The position numbers were made by a program, and so were the translations under genes. Below the pieces are notes generated by a model. It was not told where the DNA came from. It did not search any database and worked only from the letters and a program-made list of their open reading frames with translations. This document shows positions 5,454-34,313 of a DNA stretch of 64,000 bases, in pieces; the first letter of the stretch is position 1, and each line of letters starts with the position of its first letter. Source of the DNA: an uncultured Bacillales bacterium (lineage in GTDB: Bacteria; Bacillota_I; Bacilli_A; RF39; UBA660); NCBI GenBank assembly GCA_947089915.1, contig CAMUMB010000001.1, forward strand, positions 1,581-65,580, written 5' to 3'.

Positions 5454-6524
5454 TTAAAATACACGTTTTCTTAGGAAAGATGGAATATCTGTTTCATCTG
5501 TTCCACTATCTTGTTCATTGTTATCTTCATCTTTCATTTCTTCTCTTCTTGTGAAACTACGAGAATTTTCTTTGTTATTGGATTCGAATCCTGTTGCGAT
5601 AACAGTTACAATGATTTCATCTGTTAGATTTTCATTGATGACTGCTCCAAAAATAGTATTGATATCTGTATTGGCAGAAGTACGAATAACATCAGCTGCC
5701 TCTTCTACTTCAAATAAAGTTAAATTTGGTCCTCCTGTTACATTGATAATCGCATCGGTTGCGCCACTAATACTCGTTTCTAATAATGGACTTTCAACTG
5801 CTTGTCTTGCAGCTTCTGTTGCACGATTTTCACCAATTCCCATTCCAATTCCAATTAAAGCATTACCACGTTTTTCCATAACAGCTTTGACGTCTGCGAA
5901 GTCTAAGTTAATTAAACCTGCAACGGCAATCAAATCAGAGATTGATTGTACCCCTCTTCTTAGGACATTGTCTACTTCTTTGAACGAATCGACAAGTGAA
6001 GTTGATTTATCAATAATTTCTCTTAAACGATCATTTGGAATAATAATTAAAGTATCGACATGTTTTTTTAATTCTTCTAATCCAGCAAGCGCTTGATCCA
6101 TTCTTTTCTTTCCTTCAAAGGAGAATGGTTTGGTTACAATTCCAACTGTTAAAGCACCCATTTCTTGCGCGATATCAGCAATCACTGGAGCAGCACCTGT
6201 TCCAGTTCCACCACCCATACCACAAGTGATGAATACCATATCAGCACCTTCTAAAGCGGCTTCAATTTCATTACGGCTTTCTAAAGCAGCTTCTTTTCCA
6301 ATTTGGGGATTCGCCCCTGCTCCAAGTCCGCTAGTTAATTCTTCTCCAATTTGTATTTTAATAGGAGCTTTAGAATTATTTAAAACTTGTAAGTCAGTAT
6401 TGGCTACAATAAAGTCGACTCCTTTTAATCCTGATTCAATCATACGGTTAACAGCGTTGTTACCACCACCACCAACACCGATTACTTTAATTTTTGCTAA
6501 TTGATCCATTTCTAATCCAAACAT
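5454..6524 (-). CDS. ftsZ: Cell division GTPase FtsZ
   Basis: [15 protein letters not shown] tubulin signature and [14 protein letters not shown]7-loop region. C-terminal conserved tail [16 protein letters not shown]. Confidence 0.96.
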
Positions 6525-6536
6525 ATATTATCCTCC

Positions 6537-7778
6537 TTATTCGCTAAAAAAGTATCCGAATATTTTACCTAACATCGATTCGCTTGAAATGATAGAACTT
6601 TTTTTGGTTGAGGAAAGTTCTTCCATATCGCTTTTACTAATCATTGTATAATCTCTTCCTTTTAGTTTTAATTTGTTGATAAAATATACGATATTTCCAA
6701 CATTTGTTGAAAATTTATTATTTCTAAGTCCAATCATACGAATGTCGCCAACCATAGCTACTTTTCCTAGAACGCTTTCTGCAATTAAGGAAAAATTGTT
6801 CATACTGCTTGTACCACCTGTTATTAGTATATAATCTACTTCTCGTTTTGTCAAAATATTTATTTCTTTTCGCGCTAAAACAAGTATCTCTTCAATACGA
6901 GACATGACAATTTCGGAAGCCTCTAATTGGTTAATTTTAATAACCTCTCCCGTTTTATCAGTGATTTCCATTGTATCATTCACACTGGCGTAATTTTTAC
7001 TTGCGAGTGCGAAACGTTCTTTGACTCTACTGGCATCTTCACTACTTAATTTATAGATATAGGATAAATCATTGTCTATATTTTTGCCACCCATACCCAT
7101 CATGGAATTTTTCACCAAAATACCTTTGTTATATAAAGCAATCGATGTGGTTTCATACCCAATATTAATAACCGCTCCTACCAAATCTTTGATGTCCTTA
7201 TCTCTGACAGAATAAAAATCTCCTATACTATTTAAGGAAATATCGATTACTTCTAAACCAACACTTTCTAACAAATTCACTACTGAGTAAATATTCTTCT
7301 TCGGAGACATTACCATAACAGCTCTTACGGATAAGTTACTTCCTTGCATTCCTTTTGGATCTTTGATTCCTTTTTTTTCATCCAATGTAAAATCAATTGG
7401 GATAACAGTTACCATCTCTTTATTGGGTACTGTCTTTTCCTTCATGGCAAGTTGTAATAAGTCAGTAACATCTTTGCCATCGATGATTTCTTCGCGATTC
7501 AATTCTATCGCACCATTTACCATTACGAAATCGGCTTGATACCCTGGAATGGAAGTAATGACTTTTTTGATTTGAATGCCAAGCATTTGTTCTACTTCAT
7601 TGAGTGCTTTTTTGACACTTTCACTTGCTTCATATACATCTGTAATAAGTCCCTTTTTGATTCCTTTTGATTTGATAGAGGATGTTGCTAGTAAATTAAG
7701 CTTATTTTGAAAAAGCTCACACACGACTACTTTCACAGTATCGGATCCGATGTCTATGCTCGTATATACATGCTTCAT
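6537..7778 (-). CDS. ftsA: Cell division protein FtsA (actin-like ATPase)
   Basis: 413 aa, immediately upstream of ftsZ. N-terminal IDIGSDTVKVVV actin-fold phosphate-1 motif. Confidence 0.92.
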   Translation of the reverse strand: MKHVYTSIDIGSDTVKVVVCELFQNKLNLLATSSIKSKGIKKGLITDVYEASESVKKALNEVEQMLGIQIKKVITSIPGYQADFVMVNGAIELNREEIIDGKDVTDLLQLAMKEKTVPNKEMVTVIPIDFTLDEKKGIKDPKGMQGSNLSVRAVMVMSPKKNIYSVVNLLESVGLEVIDISLNSIGDFYSVRDKDIKDLVGAVINIGYETTSIALYNKGILVKNSMMGMGGKNIDNDLSYIYKLSSEDASRVKERFALASKNYASVNDTMEITDKTGEVIKINQLEASEIVMSRIEEILVLARKEINILTKREVDYILITGGTSSMNNFSLIAESVLGKVAMVGDIRMIGLRNNKFSTNVGNIVYFINKLKLKGRDYTMISKSDMEELSSTKKSSIISSESMLGKIFGYFFSE

Positions 7779-8057: not shown

Positions 8058-8537
8058 TTATCTTTTAATTGCTCCACCATGACATTTTAAAACATAAACT
8101 CTTTCTTCATCTTTAGAAATTGTTTCAATACCTTCAAAATAATCTAAATTACCATCAACTTGAAAGGTATATTTATATCCATTATTTATGTATTCTTTTG
8201 GTCCCCTTACGGGTAAAATATCATCTTCACCAACTTGCATTAGTGCAGGTCTTAACGCACTATCTATAGCCTCCTCACTTAAGTTTTCATTTAATGTTAC
8301 ACCATAATAATTCATTGCCCAAATAGGTGTATTATCGGAAGCATAAACCACTTCTTCTCCTATAAATTTTGTTCCTCCAAAATATGTATCATGATATATC
8401 ATTTTACCATTACTATATTGATAGTCAAACGAACCTTCTCTTGAAGATAATGTCTTTTTTACATTTCCATTCGCATAAGTTTGTTTTTTAGCCTCAATTA
8501 AAAAATTATATAATCCTTTATCCATTATACTCACCAT
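8058..8537 (-). CDS. Hypothetical cytoplasmic protein (159 aa)
   Basis: Complete ORF with RBS. Occupies the position of the small ylxW/ylxX/sbp-type genes between divIB and ftsA in Bacillus. Family not recognised. Confidence 0.5.
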   Translation of the reverse strand: MVSIMDKGLYNFLIEAKKQTYANGNVKKTLSSREGSFDYQYSNGKMIYHDTYFGGTKFIGEEVVYASDNTPIWAMNYYGVTLNENLSEEAIDSALRPALMQVGEDDILPVRGPKEYINNGYKYTFQVDGNLDYFEGIETISKDEERVYVLKCHGGAIKR

Positions 8538-8763
8538 CCTATACCAATTTAGTAATGTTAGTTATTCTAATTTTGCTTTTAAACCTAAGACCTAAAACAA
8601 AGACTAAAAAGAAAACGCTTAACACACCAAAGTTCTACGTATCTCTTTTTTATTGTATGAGATTTCTCTCATCTATATACATAGTATCATAAGCCATAAT
8701 GTCTGTCAAACAAAACTTCATGAACTTAGCATAAATATTATAGATTGCTGATGCAAAATTATA

Positions 8764-8792
8764 TTTACAGATTATTGGACATATAGTATAAT
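8764..8792 (+). promoter_or_regulatory. Sigma-A-type promoter TTTACA-N17-TATAAT driving small-peptide ORF 1
   Basis: TTTACA 8764-8769, 17-nt spacer, TATAAT 8787-8792. Conserved in copy 2. Confidence 0.55.
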
Positions 8793-8868
8793 AAATTTAG
8801 GATATATGTGGTTTTGTCAGATGTCTTCCCTTTCTTTTATAACCATAAATAGAAAGGCGGTGGTGTAT

Positions 8869-8946
8869 ATGAAACAAAATGAAAAATATTTGTATTTCAT
8901 AATCGCCTTGTTATTTCTAACAATTTTTATATTACTATTGAAATAA
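8869..8946 (+). CDS. Small hydrophobic peptide (25 aa, MKQNEKYLYFIIALLFLTIFILLLK), candidate type I toxin
   Basis: SD GAAAGGCGGTG 8-10 nt upstream of ATG. Charged N-terminus, single predicted TM helix and C-terminal Lys. Paralogue in the next repeat. Confidence 0.55.
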   Translation: MKQNEKYLYFIIALLFLTIFILLLK

Positions 8947-9065
8947 CAAAAAAAGGCATCTAATCTATCTATTGATTTGTTAGATGCCAATTCCCAAGAT
9001 AAGGGATGCATTTGACTCACCTAAACCAAATGTATCCTTTTTATAATATGAAGTTGCCTTCATCT
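8947..9065 (-). ncRNA. Predicted antisense RNA 1 (about 120 nt), convergent with and overlapping the 3' UTR of peptide-1 mRNA. Candidate type I antitoxin
   Basis: Minus-strand promoter TTGACA (9100-9095)-N17-TACAAT (9077-9072). 5' hairpin AUGAAGgcaaCUUCAU. 3' terminator GGCAUCUAA-N16-UUAGAUGCC followed by U7 (complement of 8947-8988). Confidence 0.55.
9009..9042 (+). terminator. Rho-independent terminator of peptide-1 mRNA (stem CATTTG/CAAATG plus T-run)
   Basis: Hairpin 9009-9031 followed by TCCTTTTT. Lies inside the region also covered by the antisense transcript. Confidence 0.45.
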
Positions 9066-9153
9066 GTATACATTGTATCAAGTTATTTTGAAGTTGTCAA
9101 ATACCTCACAACATAAACAATAAATTTTTATAGATTGTTAATGCAAAATTATA

Positions 9154-9182
9154 TTTACAAATAGTTAGCTCAATAGTATAAT
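9154..9182 (+). promoter_or_regulatory. Sigma-A-type promoter TTTACA-N17-TATAAT driving small-peptide ORF 2
   Basis: TTTACA 9154-9159, TATAAT 9177-9182. Confidence 0.55.
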
Positions 9183-9257
9183 TGATTTAGGATATATTTG
9201 ATTATGTCAGATGTTTTCCCTTTTCTTTTGCTGTGAAAAAGAAAGGCGGTGATATTT

Positions 9258-9347
9258 ATGAAAAAGAACGAAAAATGCCTCTATTTCATAATTACGCTGT
9301 TATTTATTGTAATATTTGCGTTAATCGCTTTATTATACATAAAATAA
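9258..9347 (+). CDS. Small hydrophobic peptide (29 aa, MKKNEKCLYFIITLLFIVIFALIALLYIK), candidate type I toxin, paralogue of 8869-8946
   Basis: Same SD (GAAAGGCGGTG). KKNEK N-terminus, one TM helix and C-terminal Lys. Confidence 0.55.
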   Translation: MKKNEKCLYFIITLLFIVIFALIALLYIK

Positions 9348-9463
9348 AAGACATCTGATAATCACAACCGTGATTTGTCAGGTGCCAACCCATAATGGGA
9401 TTACATTTGACTCAGCAAAAAATCAAATGTATCCTTTTTTATTGTATGAAGTTGCCTTCATCT
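9341..9463 (-). ncRNA. Predicted antisense RNA 2 (about 120 nt), convergent with peptide-2 mRNA
   Basis: Minus-strand promoter TTGACA (9498-9493)-N17-TAGAAT (9475-9470). 3' imperfect hairpin plus U-run overlapping the stop codon of ORF 2. The sense terminator (ACATTTGA...TCAAATGT plus T6, 9403-9440) lies within the overlap. Confidence 0.5.
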
Positions 9464-9539
9464 GTATACATTCTATCAATTTATTTTGAAGTTGTCAAAT
9501 ACCTCACAACACAGACATTCACGAACAATATATTTTTTA

Positions 9540-10283
9540 TTATGGTAGTAAAGTAAAATATTGTCCTGAATCTAAATTTAGAATTCCTTTTTTATTTCCA
9601 TATTTGCTGATAAATTCCGCATAAATACTAACATAATTATTGATATTCTCTAATTTTTCTAATGTCAAATAGACATAATTGCCATCTCGCATAATAAATA
9701 AGAAACGTTCTTCATCCACATTACTTGGTTGATATATGATTTCTGAAACACGTTCTAAAATAGTAGAATCAATCTCTTGCATTTTTTTCTGAAATGAGTC
9801 ATAAATGGTATCTGGTACATAGTTAAGCAAAACAGGTGCATTCCATTTTTCTTCTATCACTTTTAGATTTGAAAGAATGGTTTTACCAATTGTTTGATTA
9901 TAAAAAAGAGGATAATTTTCGATAATTTTGATATGGATTTCTTTTCCTTTTTTCTTTTCAATGCGAGCAGAAGCAATTCTAGGGTCATTTTTGAGTTTTC
10001 TTACCATATCACTTTTCATTGTCTTTATGATAGATGGATAATTTTGAATTCCTGCTAATTCAATCACTTCTTGATCGGTTAAATAGACATTGCCCTCTAT
10101 ATAAATGTTACGAATGGGAATATCTAAGCATTTAGATAGAATAAAAGCAAAACAAGCAAAGCAAACAAGAACGATGAAAACCCGGCCATAACGTACTTTT
10201 CGACGTTTGATTTTTTTTACCTTTTTTTTAGGTAAAGTTTTTTTCTGATACACTCGTTTTGTTACGCGCTTTTTTTGCTTCAT
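9540..10283 (-). CDS. ftsQ: Cell division protein FtsQ/DivIB (K-rich N-terminus, single TM, POTRA domain)
   Basis: 247 aa, bitopic topology. Sits between murB and the ftsA-ftsZ unit as in the dcw cluster. Confidence 0.8.
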   Translation of the reverse strand: MKQKKRVTKRVYQKKTLPKKKVKKIKRRKVRYGRVFIVLVCFACFAFILSKCLDIPIRNIYIEGNVYLTDQEVIELAGIQNYPSIIKTMKSDMVRKLKNDPRIASARIEKKKGKEIHIKIIENYPLFYNQTIGKTILSNLKVIEEKWNAPVLLNYVPDTIYDSFQKKMQEIDSTILERVSEIIYQPSNVDEERFLFIMRDGNYVYLTLEKLENINNYVSIYAEFISKYGNKKGILNLDSGQYFTLLP

Positions 10284-10295
10284 ATCTATCCCTCA

Positions 10296-11177
10296 TTATT
10301 CTACGATTTCTTGTTCCAATATTAAATCAATTTGATATTTTTCTTTGACTTTTTTTTGAATGGTACGAATGATTGCAACAATATCTTTTCCACTTGCAGT
10401 TCCATCTGTTACAATGAAGTTGGCATGTTTTTCAGATACTTTTGCGCCCCCTACTTGATAGCCTTTGAGGCCTACTTCTTCAATCAATTTCCCTGCTGGA
10501 ATATCATCTGGATTTCTGAAAACACTTCCTGCACTTGGAAATTCTAACGGTTGGGACATTAGTCTTCTTTTTTTACGATCTTCTATAATTTCAATGATTT
10601 CTTCTTTATTGCCTTTTTTTAGAACTAAACTCGCTTCTAAGCAAATATAATCTGGGTGTTGTTTCAAAAAAGAGGTACGATAATGAAAATCTAAATCACG
10701 GTTATACATTCTTTTAATTTTTAATTCTGGTGTAATGACTAAAATACTTTCTACCACATAGCCCATATCACTTCCATAGGCACCTGCATTGTTGAAAATA
10801 GCACCTCCAATCGTTCCTGGGATTCCTGTTGCAAATTCAAGTCCTGTATATCCCATACGAGAAAGCTTAAGCGCCAGTTTCAATGTAGGATAGCCTGCAC
10901 CTACTTGTACTTTTGTATCCTCTATTTTTAAAGTATCAAAGGCATTTAATCGAATTAAAATACCCTCATAATCTTTTTGAAAAATTAAATTAGAACCACC
11001 ACCTATAATTTTATAGGAAAGTTTATTTTCTTTAATATATTCGAGTAAATGAATTAATTCTTTTTGCGTTTCAGGTTCTACTAAAACAGTTACTTTTTCT
11101 TTCAGTTTATAGGTCGTGTAATCCTTTAAGGAAATGGATTCCATTACCTTTCCACATTTTTTCAATTCTTTTATCAC
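10296..11177 (-). CDS. murB: UDP-N-acetylenolpyruvoylglucosamine reductase MurB
   Basis: FAD-binding GGGSNLIF motif, C-terminal MurB domain. GTG start overlapping the murG stop (translational coupling). Confidence 0.88.
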   Translation of the reverse strand: MIKELKKCGKVMESISLKDYTTYKLKEKVTVLVEPETQKELIHLLEYIKENKLSYKIIGGGSNLIFQKDYEGILIRLNAFDTLKIEDTKVQVGAGYPTLKLALKLSRMGYTGLEFATGIPGTIGGAIFNNAGAYGSDMGYVVESILVITPELKIKRMYNRDLDFHYRTSFLKQHPDYICLEASLVLKKGNKEEIIEIIEDRKKRRLMSQPLEFPSAGSVFRNPDDIPAGKLIEEVGLKGYQVGGAKVSEKHANFIVTDGTASGKDIVAIIRTIQKKVKEKYQIDLILEQEIVE

Positions 11178-11178
11178 A

Positions 11179-12255
11179 TTACTTCACCATTTCTTTTAAG
11201 GTCTCATAAATGATTGTTGCACTATTTGGAATATCTAATGTTTCCAAATTTTTTTGCATCATTTTTAATCGTTCGGAATCTTTTATCATTGTATCTACGG
11301 TTCTTACCAAAATATCCCCTTTTAAATCCTTTTCTTCCAATAAAACAGCTGCATCTTGTTTGATAAAATCCATCGCATTTTTGTATTGATGATTGTCAGG
11401 CACATAAGGACTTGGTATTAAAATAGATGGAATTTTAAGTGCAATAATTTCACTCAATGTCGTAGCACCACATCTTGTAATCATAATATCTGCATGATGC
11501 ATCATTTCAATTTGATTTTCGATATAAGGTACCACAAAGACATTTCTTGGAAATTTATTTTTGGAAACCGTTTCATAAGAATCTTTTCCAGTTACAAATA
11601 GAATTTCATATTCTTTATTTTGAAATAGGTTCATTGTTTTCACTAAAATTTCATTCATTTTACTAGAACCGAGTGACCCCATTACAATATAAACCAGTTT
11701 TTTGTCTTTGGATAAGCCATACTTCGTTTTATCTGCTTTTTTGGATGCTCTTGCAGCTTCACTACATGGATTTCCTGTAAATATGGTTTTATATTCTGGA
11801 AAATGTTTCATGGTAGTTTTAAAGGATACCCCTATTTTATCTGTATATTTACTTAAAAATAAATTGGCCTTTCCTGGAACACTATTTTGCTCATGAATAA
11901 ATGTTGGATAGCCTAATTTCTTAGCAGCATAAATGACAGGTCCTGTTACATATCCACCAACACCAATTACTACATCTGGTTTAAATTCTTTCATCATATG
12001 TTTGACTTCTTTGATGCCTTTCATAAAACATTTGATTGTTTTAAAATTTTTCAGTAAATGTTTTCTTTGAAATCCATATATTTCAATCGTCTCAAATGGA
12101 ATTCCTCTTTCAGGAACAATATCTTTTTCCATACGATTGTGTGTTCCAATGTATAAAAATTCACTATTAGGTTCTTTTTCCTTAATTTTATCTATTATGG
12201 CTAATGCAGGATATATATGTCCTCCTGTTCCACCAGCACTTATGATTACTCTCAC
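11179..12255 (-). CDS. murG: Undecaprenyldiphospho-muramoylpentapeptide beta-N-acetylglucosaminyltransferase MurG
   Basis: N-terminal GGTGGHIYPALA motif (GT28). 358 aa. Confidence 0.9.
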   Translation of the reverse strand: MRVIISAGGTGGHIYPALAIIDKIKEKEPNSEFLYIGTHNRMEKDIVPERGIPFETIEIYGFQRKHLLKNFKTIKCFMKGIKEVKHMMKEFKPDVVIGVGGYVTGPVIYAAKKLGYPTFIHEQNSVPGKANLFLSKYTDKIGVSFKTTMKHFPEYKTIFTGNPCSEAARASKKADKTKYGLSKDKKLVYIVMGSLGSSKMNEILVKTMNLFQNKEYEILFVTGKDSYETVSKNKFPRNVFVVPYIENQIEMMHHADIMITRCGATTLSEIIALKIPSILIPSPYVPDNHQYKNAMDFIKQDAAVLLEEKDLKGDILVRTVDTMIKDSERLKMMQKNLETLDIPNSATIIYETLKEMVK

Positions 12256-17554: not shown

Positions 17555-18643
17555 ATGAAAGAGAAAAATTTAAAAATATGTGTATATACCATTTGTAAAA
17601 ATGAAGAACAATTTGTGAATCGTTGGGTAGATTCTATGCAAGAAGCAGATGCAATCTATGTACTGGATACAGGATCTACGGATCATACAGTAGAAATATT
17701 GAAGCAAAGAAATGTAAATGTAGAGACAAAGGTGATCACACCATGGAGATTTGATGTTGCAAGAAATCTTTCTTTGGATATGGTTCCAAGCGATACAGAT
17801 ATTTGTGTCTGTACAGATTTAGATGAAGTGTTTGAACCTGGTTGGCGTAAAAAATTAGAAGAAGCATGGGATGAAAATACAAAACATGCGAGATATAACT
17901 ATAATTGGAGCTTTGATGATAAAGGAGATCCTGCCGTTAATTTTTACATTGAAAAAATACATAGTCGAAATGAATATCGTTGGACACACCCTGTACATGA
18001 AGTATTACGTTATTTTGGTACAACAAAAGAAAATTTCATCACGATAGATAGTATTACACTCAATCATTATCCAGATCATTCCAAATCAAGATCCAGTTAT
18101 TTGCCTTTATTAGAATTATCGGTAGCAGAAGATCCAGAAGATGATCGTAATATGCATTATCTTGGAAGAGAATACATGTACTATGGAAAATGGAATGAAT
18201 GCATTGATACACTAATTCGTCATTTACATTTAAAAAGTGCTACATGGAAAGATGAGAGATGTGCCTCTATGCGTTTTATCGCAAGATCTTATCAATCATT
18301 AGAACGTTTTGATGAAGCAAAAATGTGGTTAGAAAAAGCGATAGAAGAAGCCCCCTATTTAAGAGATCCTTATGTAGAAAGGGCAATACTTGCCTATCAT
18401 TTAAAAGAATTTGATGATGTAATTACATATGGAAAACAGGCATTACAAATTCAAACACATGCTAAAACTTATATCAATGAACCATTTAGTTGGGATTCTA
18501 CTGTATATGATATTTTATCCATTGCATACTATTATCAAGGTGACTTAAAAAATGCAATTAAATATGTCAATTTTGCTTTAGATATGAATCCACAAGATGA
18601 AAGATTACTACAAAATAAACAGTTAATGGAAAAAGAGGATTAG
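17555..18643 (+). CDS. Family 2 glycosyltransferase with C-terminal TPR repeats
   Basis: N-terminal GT-A fold motifs (ICVYTICKNEE..., YVLDTGSTDHT). TPR-like helices in the C-terminal half. ATG at 17555 has GGAG RBS, while the ORF-track start at 17468 lacks one. Confidence 0.65.
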   Translation: MKEKNLKICVYTICKNEEQFVNRWVDSMQEADAIYVLDTGSTDHTVEILKQRNVNVETKVITPWRFDVARNLSLDMVPSDTDICVCTDLDEVFEPGWRKKLEEAWDENTKHARYNYNWSFDDKGDPAVNFYIEKIHSRNEYRWTHPVHEVLRYFGTTKENFITIDSITLNHYPDHSKSRSSYLPLLELSVAEDPEDDRNMHYLGREYMYYGKWNECIDTLIRHLHLKSATWKDERCASMRFIARSYQSLERFDEAKMWLEKAIEEAPYLRDPYVERAILAYHLKEFDDVITYGKQALQIQTHAKTYINEPFSWDSTVYDILSIAYYYQGDLKNAIKYVNFALDMNPQDERLLQNKQLMEKED

Positions 18644-18711
18644 ATTCCCCTTTTTTAATGATTAAAAGGGGCTGAGTAGAAATGAATAAATTCTATTCAG
18701 CCCCTCCTTTT

Positions 18712-19443
18712 TTATTGTAATTGAAATCGATAATGCCCTATAATTCCTTTTTTCTTACTCCATCTTTGTAATGTATCTTCTTCTAATTTAGGTTGTCCTG
18801 CATTATGTATCAAATAAGGAATCCCTTTGGAATTTCTCTTATCTGAAACAATGCCAATATGTTCACTTTTTCCAAATACAACAATATCTCCAGGTTGCCA
18901 CTCTTCTATTTTGGACAAATCATTTGTAAGTATAATAGTATTTCTTTGAAAATAAATATTTAAGTTCGTAACTCTTCTAAAATCAATATTAGGATCTATC
19001 TTTGTAATATTAGGATAAGCTTCCCTATTCTTTTCAATATCTTCTGAAACAAGATCTTTTAACGAATACCCAGCTTCTTTTAAGGCTCTCCAGATGACAT
19101 CTGTACAGACCCCCTCTGTTTCAGGCGGGTATCCACCACTATAATACTTACTCACATACTTTGGTTTAAGTTTTACCTCTTTTTTTGCACCATTTAAAAT
19201 ATCCATATAATCATCAATTCCATTTTGATTGTAATCAATTTCAGAATGAATGATATCGATATGAAAATCGGAGGCAATATAACTTTTTTTGGGAAGAAAT
19301 CTATAATAGTCTAGAACAAAAAGACCAATTAATATCAAAATAAATAAACCTACAAATAACAAGTAGAAAGAACGTTTCATATGATCACCTATTCCATTAT
19401 AACATGAAAAAAGCAAATCACATATGATCTGATTTGCTATCAA
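18712..19443 (-). CDS. Secreted/anchored protein, DUF1287-like (putative cell-wall-associated hydrolase fold)
   Basis: N-terminal TM/signal anchor. Conserved C/H residues (GVCTDVIW...HIGIV). Overlaps upstream gene by 4 nt. Confidence 0.45.
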   Translation of the reverse strand: MIANQIICDLLFSCYNGIGDHMKRSFYLLFVGLFILILIGLFVLDYYRFLPKKSYIASDFHIDIIHSEIDYNQNGIDDYMDILNGAKKEVKLKPKYVSKYYSGGYPPETEGVCTDVIWRALKEAGYSLKDLVSEDIEKNREAYPNITKIDPNIDFRRVTNLNIYFQRNTIILTNDLSKIEEWQPGDIVVFGKSEHIGIVSDKRNSKGIPYLIHNAGQPKLEEDTLQRWSKKKGIIGHYRFQLQ

Positions 19444-31926: not shown

Positions 31927-32817
31927 TCATGGTAAGTTCGATTCAATCTTACTACATGCCATTTCAACAGTATTTTCAAAATATTCGAAATCAACATCAA
32001 TCCATTCCACATTCATTTGATGACGGAACCAGGTATATTGTCTTTTCGCATAATTACGGCTATGTTGTTTGATTTTGTCTAAGCAATTTTCTAATGTACG
32101 AAATCCACTAAAATAATCAAATAATTCTTTATAACCAATTGGTGCGATAATAGCCTTGGTACGTAATGGTTGTTCGTAAATTTGTCTTGCTTCTTCTAAT
32201 AGTCCGTTTTGCATCATAATATCGACTCTTTGATCAATTCTTTCATATAAAACTGATCTTTCTGTAGTAAGCCCAAGAACAATCGTTGGATAAAGTAATT
32301 GTTCCGCTTTTTCTTTTTTTTCTAAAATCTTTCCAGTTTGTTCATAATAAGAAAGAGCTCGTTCAATTCGTTTTCGGTTATTTGGATGAACCGTAGTATC
32401 TGGATTAATTTGTTTTAGTCGTTTATATAAAACAGATGTTTCTTCTGGATACGATATCACTCCATTTGTTTCTTCTTCTAATTTATAATCGTATAAAGCA
32501 GCTTTGATATAAAGGCCTGTTCCCCCTACTAAAATAGGCGTTTTATTACGGGATAAAATTTCCTCTATTTTGGTTCTACAATCTTTTTGATAATCATATA
32601 ATGTGTAGAGTTCATCCCAATCCTTAATATCAATTAAATGATGTGGAATATTTTTCTTTTCAGATTCAGTTACTTTGGCAGTCGCAATATCCATTTCTTT
32701 ATAGACTTGCGTACTATCTGCATTGATAATTTCTCCATTGTACTTTTTGGCAAGTTCAATGCTTAATTTGGTTTTACCAACCCCAGTAGGCCCCACAATG
32801 CAAATTATTTGATTCAT
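31927..32817 (-). CDS. miaA: tRNA dimethylallyltransferase MiaA
   Basis: P-loop [18 protein letters not shown]. 296 aa. Confidence 0.9.
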   Translation of the reverse strand: MNQIICIVGPTGVGKTKLSIELAKKYNGEIINADSTQVYKEMDIATAKVTESEKKNIPHHLIDIKDWDELYTLYDYQKDCRTKIEEILSRNKTPILVGGTGLYIKAALYDYKLEEETNGVISYPEETSVLYKRLKQINPDTTVHPNNRKRIERALSYYEQTGKILEKKEKAEQLLYPTIVLGLTTERSVLYERIDQRVDIMMQNGLLEEARQIYEQPLRTKAIIAPIGYKELFDYFSGFRTLENCLDKIKQHSRNYAKRQYTWFRHQMNVEWIDVDFEYFENTVEMACSKIESNLP

Positions 32818-32865: not shown

Positions 32866-32894
32866 TTTACAATATCATAGACGTATAGTATAAT
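32866..32894 (+). promoter_or_regulatory. Sigma-A-type promoter TTTACA-N17-TATAAT, homologous to the promoters of the small-peptide modules at 8764/9154
   Basis: tatatttaca..atagtataat..tagg.tata is shared with 8758-8806. Confidence 0.45.
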
Positions 32895-32969
32895 GATTAT
32901 AGGTATACGAGATAGTTAGGTATTTTACTCAATTCTTCTGTCAAAGGCAGTAGAAAAGAGGTGATTTCT

Positions 32970-33059
32970 ATGATTTTTAAAATGATAGAAAGGTTTAATT
33001 CTTTTGGAATTAGTAGTTGCTTTTGTAGCTATTGTGTTTTACACAATCTTAGTACTTAA
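32970..33059 (+). CDS. Small ORF (29 aa, MIFKMIERFNSFGISSCFCSYCVLHNLST) at the position equivalent to the peptide ORF of the 8.6-9.5 kb modules. Possibly a degenerated toxin
   Basis: Strong SD AAGAGGTGA 6 nt upstream. Followed by hairpin terminator 33082-33118. Confidence 0.3.
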   Translation: MIFKMIERFNSFGISSCFCSYCVLHNLST

Positions 33060-33081
33060 AAATAAGGACTAATCTTAAATG

Positions 33082-33118
33082 AAAACACCGAATCAACATT
33101 GATTGCGGTGTTTTCCCA
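33082..33118. terminator. Hairpin AAAACACCGAATCAA-cat-TGATTGCGGTGTTTT, probable bidirectional terminator between the small ORF and the convergent antisense promoter
   Basis: 15-bp imperfect stem, T-rich on both sides. Confidence 0.4.
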
Positions 33119-33203
33119 TTCAATAAGAATAGAGAATACACTTAACAAGCGATATCAAGTATATCTCTTTTTTTATGATATGAAGTTTACTTCATCTATA
33201 TAC

Positions 33204-33232
33204 ATAATAACAGGTATTATTATATTTGTCAA
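33204..33232 (-). promoter_or_regulatory. Minus-strand sigma-A promoter TTGACA-N17-TATTAT, homologous to the antisense promoters at 9072-9100 and 9470-9498
   Basis: Flanked by the same ATGAAG-N4-CTTCAT hairpin (33179-33194) as the other copies. Confidence 0.45.
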
Positions 33233-33287
33233 ATTTTATATAGATTATTCATCTAAATAATAATTATTCTCTATCTACTTACAATTT

Positions 33288-34313
33288 TTAACGAATAAAC
33301 ATACTATCTCCAAATGAGAAAAAACGGTACTCATGTTTAACTGCTTCTTCATATGCATGCAGAATATGTTCTTTTCCAGCCAGGGCACTTACTAACATTA
33401 ATAATGTCGATTTTGGTAAATGAAAATTGGTAATCAGTGCATCAATTGCTTCAAATTGATATCCAGGATAGATAAAAATATCCGTCCAACCACTACACGC
33501 TTGAAAAGAATGATGCAATTTCATAACCGTTTCCAATACTCTAGTAGAAGTCGTTCCAACTGCAATAATTCTTCTTCCCTCTTTTTTAGCAAGATTTAGT
33601 GTATTAGCAGTTTCCTCATCCATTTGATAAAATTCACTATGCATTTGATGTTTGGTTACATCCTCTACTGAAACTGGACGAAAAGTGCCAAGTCCTACAT
33701 GTAAGGTAACATATAAAATTTGAATTCCTTTGTTAGCAAGATTCTCTAATAATTCATTGGTAAAATGAAGTCCAGCGGTTGGTGCTGCAGCACTTCCCTC
33801 ATTTTTGGCATATACGGTTTGATAACGATCTTTATTTTCCAATTTTTCATGAATATATGGAGGTAATGGCATTTCTCCTAATTGATCCAATATTTCATAT
33901 AAAATTCCTTCATACTGCAACTCAAAAATACGAATTCCCTCTTCTTTTATTTTGATACAAGTAGCTTTTAATAATCCATTTCCAAAAGAAATAGTAGTTC
34001 CAACTTTTACTCTTTTAGCAGGTTTTGTTAAACATTCCCATGTATCATTTTCTTTTTCTTTTAGTAGCAGTAATTCAATAGAGGCATTGGTTTCTTCCTT
34101 AATCCCATAAAGTCTTGCTGGAATAACCTTTGTATTGTTTAATACAAGTACATCTCCTTCTTGTAATTCCCCTAAAATATCATGAAACTGTTTATGTTGT
34201 ATCTCTCCTGTTTTCTTATCTAAAACAAGCATTTTTGAAGTATCTCTTTTTTCAATAGGAGTCTGGGCAATTAAATATTCTGGTAACTCATAATCGAAAT
34301 CTTCTGTTTTCAT
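33288..34313 (-). CDS. queA: S-adenosylmethionine:tRNA ribosyltransferase-isomerase QueA
   Basis: N-terminus [24 protein letters not shown]. 341 aa. Confidence 0.9.

Follow-up and report, generated by a model that had tools for sequence, protein, structure and literature searches.

[quoted passage not shown] Among the closest described systems, SprA1/SprA1as of S. aureus and Fst/RNAII (par) of E. faecalis pair functionally outside the overlap of their RNAs, at the translation initiation region. The B. subtilis systems TxpA/RatA, BsrG/SR4, BsrE/SR5 and YonT/SR6 act by forming a duplex that then decays in an RNase III-dependent manner, and to our knowledge no 5'-3' closing helix has been described for them. 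In hok/Sok (plasmid R1) and AapA/IsoA (H. pylori), both of which have Gram-negative hosts, the antisense RNA acts on a processed mRNA, in its 5' or ORF part, and the long-distance helix of hok and aapA itself occludes the Shine-Dalgarno sequence (SD). This 5'-3' interaction closes the full-length mRNA, which is then stable and inert (PMC6733600). In terms of layout, the antisense RNA of SprA1/SprA1as and Fst/RNAII lies 3' of the toxin mRNA, is convergent with it and does not overlap the ORF; in the four B. subtilis systems the antisense RNA also covers the 3' end of the ORF (PMC8594479).

The window analysed here, a 64,000-nt stretch of DNA from an uncultured Bacillales bacterium, contains at 8730-9540 two modules of approximately 390 nt arranged head-to-tail, each of which is, by analogy with the systems above, probably a type I TA module of a previously unannotated family. 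The two tandem units of ~390 bp reported in a preliminary description of this DNA are real: the direct repeats are spaced 390-398 nt apart and are 76-84% identical by alignment, and 0 matches to the unit motifs are expected in shuffles. On the + strand, each module comprises a strong promoter, a leader of ~70 nt with an SD-trapping hairpin, a 25- or 29-codon ORF with a single transmembrane (TM) stretch and a 3' UTR of ~95 nt; on the minus strand, a convergent promoter would give rise to a predicted RNA of ~117 nt reaching as far as the stop codon. The type I TA-like interpretation put forward earlier is supported both by this anatomy, which includes each element of a Firmicute-style type I TA module (TM peptide, sequestered SD, convergent antisense RNA on the 3' UTR), and by its conservation, with covariation, in approximately 80 independent modules from metagenomes.

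The modules occupy the ftsQ-ftsA spacer of the dcw (cell-division) cluster. Every dcw gene is on the minus strand; the peptides are therefore encoded on the strand opposite to dcw, and the small RNAs share its direction. The repeats, placed earlier between ftsQ and ftsA, do not adjoin ftsA, as a DUF5680 gene (159 aa, 8058-8537) intervenes. Their position within the cluster had also been called unusual; the location is incidental and differs between strains. At the corresponding dcw site, a sister strain holds one fewer module, which answers the earlier suggestion to check for copy-number variability, and modules are present at a minimum of two further loci of the same genome. The spacers of two relatives (L001 and L002), retrieved by an exact-protein look-up with FtsQ, are 100% identical and therefore uninformative on variation. 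The dcw site is one among many insertion sites, with no functional link, and the ftsQ-ftsA spacer of the source organism is an accessory hotspot and no part of cell-division control.

A promoter scan returned the sigma-A promoters of the + strand and the near-consensus promoters of the minus strand in both copies, as previously described. The predicted toxin mRNAs would be transcribed from TTTACA-17-TATAAT at 8764..8792 (+; 11/12 matches) and at 9154..9182 (+), and the predicted antisense RNAs from TG-extended promoters, TTGACA-17-TACAAT at 9072..9100 (-) and TTGACA-17-TAGAAT at 9470..9498 (-). Across the wider family, an equivalent -10 of the toxin promoter lies 6-8 nt upstream of the leader, and the antisense promoters have a TG-extended -10 in 74/82 members and a -35 matching at least 4/6 positions, also in 74/82. 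The SD, AGAAAGGCGGTG, is located at 8851 and 9240, ahead of ORF 1 (8869..8946 including the stop, +; MKQNEKYLYFIIALLFLTIFILLLK, 25 aa) and ORF 2 (9258..9347 including the stop, +; MKKNEKCLYFIITLLFIVIFALIALLYIK, 29 aa). Both peptides, taken from the ORF list, are identical to those first written down and contain one TM stretch each, placing them among the small (<60 aa) hydrophobic or TM peptides typical of type I TA systems. Additionally, ORF 1 is backed by the coding signature of the family. The family ORFs (n = 82, among the matches listed) are 21-33 aa long; their differing codons are synonymous in 41% of cases in frame vs 16% and 6% off frame, and the second position of their TM codons is T in 81%. 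The peptides fall into two unrelated classes, I and II, which share one RNA chassis; those of class I have a charged N-terminus. The suspicion that they belong to no named toxin family holds: no toxin family was returned by Pfam, NCBIfam and PADLOC searches of the window peptides or by Pfam and NCBIfam searches of 42 family peptides, none of which matches a model of the Fst type. The PADLOC anti-phage defence models gave 0 matches, and a protein-database search with a profile of the 42 peptides, used because a single peptide is too short a query, gave just 7 weak, unnamed matches. Because the peptides match no toxin HMM, the label "toxin" rests on analogy.

The predicted toxin mRNAs, with ends placed by the geometry of promoters and terminators, span 8799..9043 (+; ~245 nt) and 9189..9441 (+; ~253 nt). 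The first consists of a 71-nt 5' UTR, the ORF and a 97-nt 3' UTR, matching the ~70 and ~95 nt estimated beforehand. Its minimum free energy (MFE) is -75.6 kcal/mol (z = -8.9 vs shuffles) with the 5' and 3' ends paired; the second, at -78.4 kcal/mol (z = -8.3 vs shuffles), has the same 5'-3' helix and SD hairpin. In the MFE structures of both, the SD is paired, in mRNA 1 within a local anti-SD/SD hairpin (CCCUUUCUUUU ... AGAAAGGCGG, 8829..8862, +; SD 8851-8862). Across the family, 69/81 mRNAs have at least 75% of the SD core paired, a predicted self-blocking fold of the kind known from type I TA systems.

The two ends of the toxin mRNA are predicted to be joined by a long-distance helix of ~28 bp, in which the first ~30 nt pair with the molecule's own 3' terminator. 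The 5' strand is the leader (8799..8829, +; duplex and fold predictions), a shortened paralogue of the central hairpin of the antisense RNA, and the 3' strand is the terminator hairpin with its T-run (9004..9042), which on the minus strand forms that central hairpin, H2 (folds and covariation). Native leader-terminator duplexes have a mean energy of -32.8 kcal/mol vs -20.0 across modules and -11.8 for shuffles, and for the leader of every module compared (54/54), the terminator of that module is a better partner than the antisense hairpin. The helix was found in 79/81 family MFE folds and was chosen by unconstrained RNAalifold, with 22/24 pairs compensatory. In total, 93.8% of its alignment cells are paired vs 32-46% in slid controls and 81% for the local sense terminator hairpin, values slightly biased in favour of the long-distance helix because the alignment was trimmed at the duplex ends. 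A translation-inhibitory 5'-3' fold had been proposed in the preliminary description, and such a fold exists, but the main partner of the 5' UTR box is the 3' terminator hairpin. The pairing originally envisaged, with a segment just after the ORF, reaches -14.8 kcal/mol (vs -10.1 across modules), far weaker than the terminator pairing, and stems from the similarity between the two hairpins of the 3' UTR; it was rejected as the main interaction. As for the intrinsic terminators claimed, a simple terminator scan reported none, since its rules do not admit hairpins with such loops and GC content, whereas folding and covariation show the hairpins.

Predicted antisense (antitoxin) RNA 1 (8948..9065, -; ~117 nt) has a fold z of -3.7 and matches the covariance model (CM) of the family with 89 bits; the corresponding values for predicted antisense RNA 2 (9343..9463, -) are -4.3 and 88 bits. 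In the folds of both, a 5' hairpin is followed by a long hairpin and then a terminator, the full order in RNA 1 being 5' hairpin (9063-9048), A-rich linker, H2, mini-hairpin and terminator. The hairpin GGCATCTAA...TTAGATGCC (8955..8988; fold, covarying helix 4) serves as the antisense terminator stem on the minus strand and as the first 3' UTR hairpin on the + strand. The U-tract adjoins the stop codon (A-run 8948-8954, TAA 8944-8946), and the predicted RNA is a perfect complement of the entire 3' UTR of the toxin mRNA. Promoters, folds and U-tract agree, at the level of sequence, with the convergent three-hairpin RNA of ~120 nt ending at the stop codon that had been described, and with an antisense gene complementary to the toxin mRNA as in type I TA systems. 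The antisense hairpins covary (18/24 pairs compensatory), 93.6% of cells are paired vs 28-40% in slid controls, and the covariation values were reached by 0/500 shuffles. Since a sequence that forms a hairpin on one strand also does so on the opposite strand, the assignment to a strand derives from G-U asymmetry and the promoters. Rfam returned nothing in the whole window at gathering thresholds and only noise over 8400-9700 in E-value mode up to E 10 (e.g., LhrC, 24 bits vs a 110-bit cut-off). A trans pairing of the SprA1as kind was rejected: the first 32 nt of the antisense RNA bind the initiation region with -6.96 kcal/mol, where a control window gives -6.46 and shuffles give -5.62.

Exact matches to the 26-nt motif from the start of the antisense RNA number more than 118 in metagenome contigs, mostly from gut. 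Among the matches listed, approximately 80 share one layout, in which a hydrophobic ORF of 21-33 aa, preceded by an SD, ends 85-105 nt upstream of the motif (stop to motif). The motif with which the family was collected lies inside the antisense 5' hairpin, so the invariance of that hairpin is partly by construction. One peptide variant alone occurs in more than 900 contigs. Tandem arrays exist at several loci, decayed and frameshifted copies are found, and the contexts are unrelated (miaA/queA, addA, ABC transporter), with no constant downstream gene. Viral contigs and the phage and plasmid collections held no relatives of the module and hence gave no evidence that it is phage- or plasmid-borne. 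Literature searches on the peptides, on type I TA systems in Erysipelotrichia and on Gram-positive long-distance interactions found no description of the family, which is unannotated, being absent from Rfam, Pfam, NCBIfam and PADLOC.

Two further copies were detected in the window. A degenerate third module, not counted in the preliminary description, lies at about 8555-8720 on both strands (CM match 56 bits, E = 1.6e-7). On the + strand it retains a class II toxin remnant, MLVILILLLNLRPKTKTKKK..., similar to the peptide of the L014 module and without promoter or proper stop; on the minus strand it carries an antisense-like gene (8566-8674) with a compensatory variant of the 5' hairpin (8657-8672) and a promoter, TTGACA-17-TACTAT (8709-8681), that points into the DUF5680 gene. 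This module was outside the training set of the covariance model, so the model built from family members recovers an untrained further copy in the window. A fourth, divergent module is located between miaA and queA (about 32866-33233, both strands; CM match 78 bits). It comprises a promoter (32866-32894, +), a predicted mRNA (~32901-33172, +; z = -6.6) with the 5'-3' helix present, a class II peptide with a TTG start (33004-33072, +; MELVVAFVAIVFYTILVLKNKD), a predicted antisense RNA (33197-33078, -; fold z = -7.2) and the antisense promoter (33204-33232, -). A weak CM match at 18625-18755 was discarded as an ordinary bidirectional terminator between convergent genes.

In the mechanism proposed here, the sigma-A promoter would drive an mRNA of ~240 nt encoding the 25- or 29-aa single-TM peptide, a presumed membrane toxin. 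This mRNA would be silenced by the local anti-SD hairpin, which traps the ribosome-binding site, and would be closed and stabilised by the ~28-bp helix from the leader to its own 3' terminator. The antisense RNA would pair with the 3' UTR, probably making first contact through the linker and the first hairpin of the 3' UTR, which is free, and the resulting long duplex would be a substrate for RNase III. The antisense central hairpin, as the paralogue of the leader, could displace the leader from the terminator; the mRNA ends would thereby be unlocked and the toxin mRNA degraded. More tentatively, and as a possibility that we regard as somewhat doubtful in its full form, the leader may mimic the antitoxin such that both compete for the 3' terminator and the antitoxin unlocks the closed mRNA for decay and does not act as a ribosome block, on a chassis shared by two or more unrelated toxin classes in many uncultured gut Bacilli-like bacteria.

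The peptides might instead be harmless small membrane proteins (e.g., a regulator or a complex subunit) tuned by a cis-antisense RNA, with no TA pair involved. This is rather improbable, even though the peptides have no similarity to any toxin family, show weak sub-threshold matches to generic small membrane proteins and are presumed toxic by analogy. [quoted passage not shown]

Repetition at several intergenic sites of one genome and in many metagenomes, together with numerous hairpins followed by T-runs on both strands, could also describe a non-coding intergenic repeat or miniature mobile element, with bidirectional terminators or insulators as hairpins and incidental ORFs. The coding signature of the ORFs with their conserved SD and start, the two promoters kept at fixed positions and the lack of matches in phage and plasmid collections or viral contigs make this highly unlikely; by inspection only, no terminal inverted repeats, target-site duplications or transposase were noticed beside the modules. 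Still harder to credit is an attenuator of a flanking gene (ftsQ, DUF5680 or ftsA) with the ORF as leader peptide. A short ORF followed by alternative hairpins has that appearance, and the remnant promoter of the third module does point into DUF5680, but at the dcw locus the ORF strand is opposite to all flanking genes, the predicted mRNA reaches its terminator before any gene, and elsewhere in the family no downstream gene is constant. A type I TA module remains the preferred reading of each unit.

The family is defined by its RNA architecture and is common in gut metagenomes; the covariance model and the 26-nt signature can be used to annotate hundreds of unrecognised loci. If the leader-mimic design is true, the family would be among the most widespread of type I families and the first in Firmicutes with a 5'-3' lock resembling that of hok and AapA. 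The leader-mimic feature also provides a testable idea of how a toxin mRNA can be controlled by antisense binding at its 3' end.

Compared with the described systems, the module agrees with SprA1/SprA1as and Fst/RNAII in its Gram-positive setting, its convergent 3'-side antisense RNA clear of the ORF, its small single-TM peptide and an SD sequestered by upstream sequence. In contrast to these systems, the 5' domain of its antisense RNA is not complementary to the initiation region above shuffles; its peptides have no match to the Fst or PepA1 models and its RNAs none in Rfam, and the charge layout of the class I peptides is reversed relative to Fst and PepA1, the N-terminus being the charged end. 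With TxpA/RatA, BsrG/SR4, BsrE/SR5 and YonT/SR6 the module has in common a convergent arrangement with a long, perfect 3' overlap and likely also RNase III-dependent decay of the duplex, whereas its antisense RNA stops at the stop codon and no sequence or HMM similarity links it to this group. A 5'-3' long-distance interaction in the predicted mRNA and multiple chromosomal copies are shared with hok/Sok and AapA/IsoA, an analogy of mechanism only, as no homologous peptide was found by HMM. Unlike in hok and aapA, a local hairpin traps the SD of the module, the terminator supplies one side of the long-distance helix, and the antisense RNA is directed at the 3' UTR, a region that contains the 3' strand of that helix. 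The predicted design unites the 3'-overlap layout of Gram-positive systems with the 5'-3' closing helix known from hok and AapA.

The dcw cluster of the window lies on the minus strand and includes murG (11179-12255), murB (10296-11177), ftsQ/divIB with a POTRA domain (9540-10283), ftsA (6537-7778) and ftsZ (5454-6524), with a gene for a 159-aa DUF5680 protein (8058-8537, minus strand) standing before ftsA. The 1-kb spacer between ftsQ and the DUF5680 gene contains two head-to-tail units with a spacing of 390-398 nt and an identity of 76-84%, a repeat present exactly as the preliminary description had it, with its promoters, SD and ORFs. On the plus strand, each unit has a toxin mRNA promoter (TTTACA-17-TATAAT; 8764-8792 and 9154-9182), the extended SD AGAAAGGCGGTG and a peptide ORF (8869-8946, product MKQNEKYLYFIIALLFLTIFILLLK; 9258-9347, product MKKNEKCLYFIITLLFIVIFALIALLYIK), while TG-extended antisense promoters are found on the minus strand (TTGACA-17-TACAAT at 9100-9072 in unit 1; TTGACA-17-TAGAAT at 9498-9470 in unit 2). 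With the cluster on the minus strand, the peptide ORFs run antisense to the dcw genes, with which the small minus-strand RNAs are co-directional. The DUF5680 gene is common to the window and two identical mouse-gut contigs (L001 and L002); L001 also carries, upstream of murG (1-1691, corresponding to the window beyond ~14 kb), a gene for a dockerin domain (PF00404) protein of >636 aa, the host of this gene near dcw being a low-GC (30.6%) gut bacterium.

With sense transcription starts set 7 nt past the -10 boxes, the predicted sense RNAs (8799-9043 and 9189-9441, plus strand) fold at -75.6 and -78.4 kcal/mol, with z = -8.9 and -8.3 against shuffles, respectively. In the MFE structures of both, the SD is paired with CCCUUUCUUUU in a local hairpin, another hairpin lies directly 3' of the stop codon, and the first ~26 nt pair with the terminator region, closing the molecule. 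The predicted antisense RNAs (9065-8948 and 9463-9343, minus strand; fold z = -3.7 and -4.3) begin with a 6-bp 5' hairpin and an A-rich linker, continue with a long hairpin and a mini-hairpin, and end in a terminator; the U-tract of this terminator lies directly against the toxin stop codon. The entire sense 3' UTR is perfectly matched by the antisense RNA and the ORF is free of overlap; the predicted folds and the sequence agree with the earlier proposal of a convergent antisense RNA that ends at the peptide stop and is complementary to the sense 3' UTR. Both the stop codon and the final Lys codon(s) fall within the A-run that templates the antisense U-tract (e.g., window 8941-8954), and family ORFs use AAA for 86% of C-terminal Lys codons vs. 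70% of N-terminal ones; there may be mutual constraint between the C-terminal lysine and the antisense terminator.

Among copies of the module, the best-conserved piece is a 26-nt family motif, the plus-strand image of the antisense start and 5' hairpin. The pattern ATGAAGTTNNCTTCATCTRTATACAT returned more than 118 exact matches in metagenome contigs (a lower bound) and none in viral contigs; sample names among the matches listed include human gut, mouse gut and one activated sludge. About 80 of the approximately 100 listed matches with enough flank have a same-strand ORF of 21-33 aa with a strong SD, its stop 85-105 nt upstream of the motif and its consensus M-[TSNK]-K-[KR]-[DE]-x-[FL] followed by ~20 hydrophobic residues and mostly a final K, and a hairpin series between ORF and motif is common to family modules. 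Tandem copies occur at L025, L039, L046, L107, L108, L112 and L119, and at least five further modules lie on contigs from the same mouse sample as the window (L014, L046, L057, L060); to judge by coverage, which equals that of the window contig, a single genome would hold about ten modules. The family peptide MKIKTFIIKVLKLIAIILLLSTLLVLAIKK is found in NCBI solely as 'hypothetical protein', on >900 contigs from human-gut-type samples. In the retrieved loci L124-L129 (3001-3093), it is always beside a gene for a 1029-aa UvrD/AddA-like helicase and is followed by variable small genes (NUDIX and others).

Counted from the predicted +1, the initial 28-32 nt of each toxin mRNA are continuously complementary to both arms of its own terminator hairpin, the terminator loop being bulged out in the resulting helix. 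Leader sequences diverge strongly among modules (GGAUAUAUGUGG..., GGAACAUUUAGUUGUUGAGUGUCUACC..., GGAAGUACCCAAA...), yet the complementarity is kept: the native duplex is predicted at -32.8 kcal/mol, compared to -20.0 kcal/mol with another module's terminator and -11.8 kcal/mol for a shuffled leader. For 34 leader-terminator concatenates, RNAalifold chose the long-distance helix over the local terminator hairpin, with 22 of 24 pairs compensatory; 93.8% of its cells are paired vs. 32-46% when the pairing partners are slid (0 of 500 shuffles), and 81.1% are paired in the local sense terminator hairpin. The helix is present in 79 of 81 MFE folds, and the SD core is at least 75% paired in 69 of 81. 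In all 54 modules compared, the leader's own terminator is a stronger pairing partner for it (-34.5 kcal/mol) than the antisense hairpin is (-17.3 kcal/mol), and in 46 of the 54 the antisense strand gives the more stable form of the central hairpin. The leader amounts to a paralogue of the antisense central hairpin without the loop. The 5'-3' fold suggested previously, between a 5' UTR box and a post-ORF segment, does exist above background (-14.8 vs. -10.1 kcal/mol), but it is far weaker than the terminator pairing.

Comparative analysis extends to the antisense RNA and the ORF. RNAalifold on 37 diverse antisense sequences recovered the 5' hairpin, central hairpin and terminator, with compensatory double changes in 18 of 24 pairs; 93.6% of consensus cells are paired (28-40% in slid controls), double-change cells number 145 (8-31 in slid controls), and none of 500 shuffles matches any observed measure. 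Since the search motif includes the 5' hairpin, no variation is seen there in this set; when the retrieved loci were searched more loosely, rare variants with the stem kept came up (e.g., ATGAGATTTCTCTCAT). A covariance model from the alignment scores three window copies at 78-89 bits and also finds a fourth copy, absent from its training set, at 8566-8674 (56 bits, E = 1.6e-7). The antisense -10 is TG-extended in 74 of 82 modules and always of the form TAnnAT, and the -35 has at least 4 of 6 matches in 74 of 82. Across 227 related ORF pairs, synonymous changes make up 41% of differing codons in the annotated frame vs. 16% and 6% in shifted frames, and differences per codon position rank 3 > 1 > 2; T occupies the second position in 81% of TM codons. 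The codon-difference pattern and T-rich second positions argue that the family ORF is a translated hydrophobic peptide and not incidental.

A peptide-pattern scan of species-representative genomes led to one MAG, labelled 'uncultured Bacillales bacterium', in which the corresponding dcw locus (L004) has 92-96% nucleotide identity to that of the window. Its spacer is without DUF5680 and holds one intact module and the same degenerate remnant as the window, together with (L004 4449-5272) a second toxin copy, 5'-truncated and frameshifted, at the site where the window has DUF5680. Close strains therefore differ in module number and content, with one intact module vs. two, which answers the earlier question of copy-number variability; unequal recombination between the 105-nt repeats could account for the difference. 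On another contig of this MAG (L005, 4860-5600), two more tandem modules with the peptides MKQNEKCLYFIITLLFLVIFALLAIIFFK and MKQNEKCLYFIITLLFLTIFILLFK lie between unrelated genes, the flanks being an 888-aa gene and a 245-aa ORF that, by reading of the DNA, is a candidate ABC-type ATPase.

A different peptide (class II) is encoded by some modules that share the antisense RNA and 5'-3' helix; its consensus is (M)-E/D-Y-L-V, a hydrophobic stretch and a Lys-rich tail, and it often starts at TTG or GTG and has a mini-ORF upstream (L014, L028, L090, L099). The toxins of L028, L090 and L099 have their own SD at the TTG/GTG start and are preceded or overlapped by a strong-SD short ORF (e.g., MHIKIHTGGLCWNY), suggesting translational coupling or a decoy ORF. 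When L005 was compared with the window by BLAST, a complete class II module came up at 32866-33233, between miaA (31927-32817, minus) and queA (33288-34313, minus), encoding MELVVAFVAIVFYTILVLKNKD from a TTG start with an overlapping upstream ORF in another frame; its mRNA has z = -6.6 and the 5'-3' helix. A degenerate third module at 8555-8720 has a class II toxin remnant (MLVILILLLNLRPKTKTKKK...) without promoter or stop, and keeps a compensatory 5' hairpin variant and an antisense promoter (8709-8681, minus) that, because it points into the DUF5680 gene, may now drive DUF5680.

The preliminary description had placed the modules between ftsQ and ftsA; they are inside the dcw cluster, but the DUF5680 gene intervenes before ftsA and other insertion sites are known. 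Since family modules also lie between miaA and queA, beside addA or beside an ABC transporter, and since the ftsQ-ftsA spacer differs between two close strains, the best reading of the position is an accessory hotspot on a natural boundary between operons, not a link to cell division.

In silico, the module has a pair of conserved, convergent promoters and encodes a translated TM peptide; its structured antisense RNA is complementary to the 3' UTR, and its mRNA is closed 5' to 3' with the SD sequestered. The closed toxin mRNAs of hok and aapA are stable and silent (PMC6733600), and that of the present family would share this stability and translational silence. Predicted pairing of the antisense RNA with the 3' UTR, probably nucleated at its free first hairpin and linker, would form a putative RNase III substrate; as a better partner than the leader, the antisense RNA would also displace the leader from the terminator, which would expose both mRNA ends to nucleases. 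An SprA1as-like antisense action on the start codon region was not supported by the pairing analysis.

The window and family peptides had no model matches in Pfam or NCBIfam, and the window peptides had none in PADLOC, in line with the earlier remark that they do not obviously resemble any named toxin family; the window RNAs had no matches in Rfam, and a literature search for these sequences or this family found no paper. The modules belonged to none of the named families against which they were tested. Because the layout matches the Gram-positive type I group with a 3'-located antisense, yet no database or literature match to a named family was found, the modules are filed as a probable new family within type I TA. 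To our knowledge, the features combined in this architecture have never been reported together. Overall, the family is real, widespread and unannotated, and it resembles type I toxin-antitoxin modules with an added leader-terminator lock; the type I-like reading first proposed is supported by the in silico anatomy and conservation, with the toxin role assigned by analogy.

As in Fst/RNAII and SprA1/SprA1as, whose 3'-located antisense RNAs do not overlap the ORF (PMC8594479), the antisense leaves the ORF uncovered; unlike in those systems, pairing here is predicted within the overlap. The probable decay mode resembles that of TxpA/RatA and BsrG/SR4 of B. subtilis, whose antisense RNAs overlap the ORF whereas those of the present family do not. 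Long-distance helices and local SD trapping have been presented as alternative solutions (PMC8594479). The long-distance helix resembles those of hok and AapA, except that in the present family it is formed with the terminator and does not occlude the SD, which is instead trapped locally.
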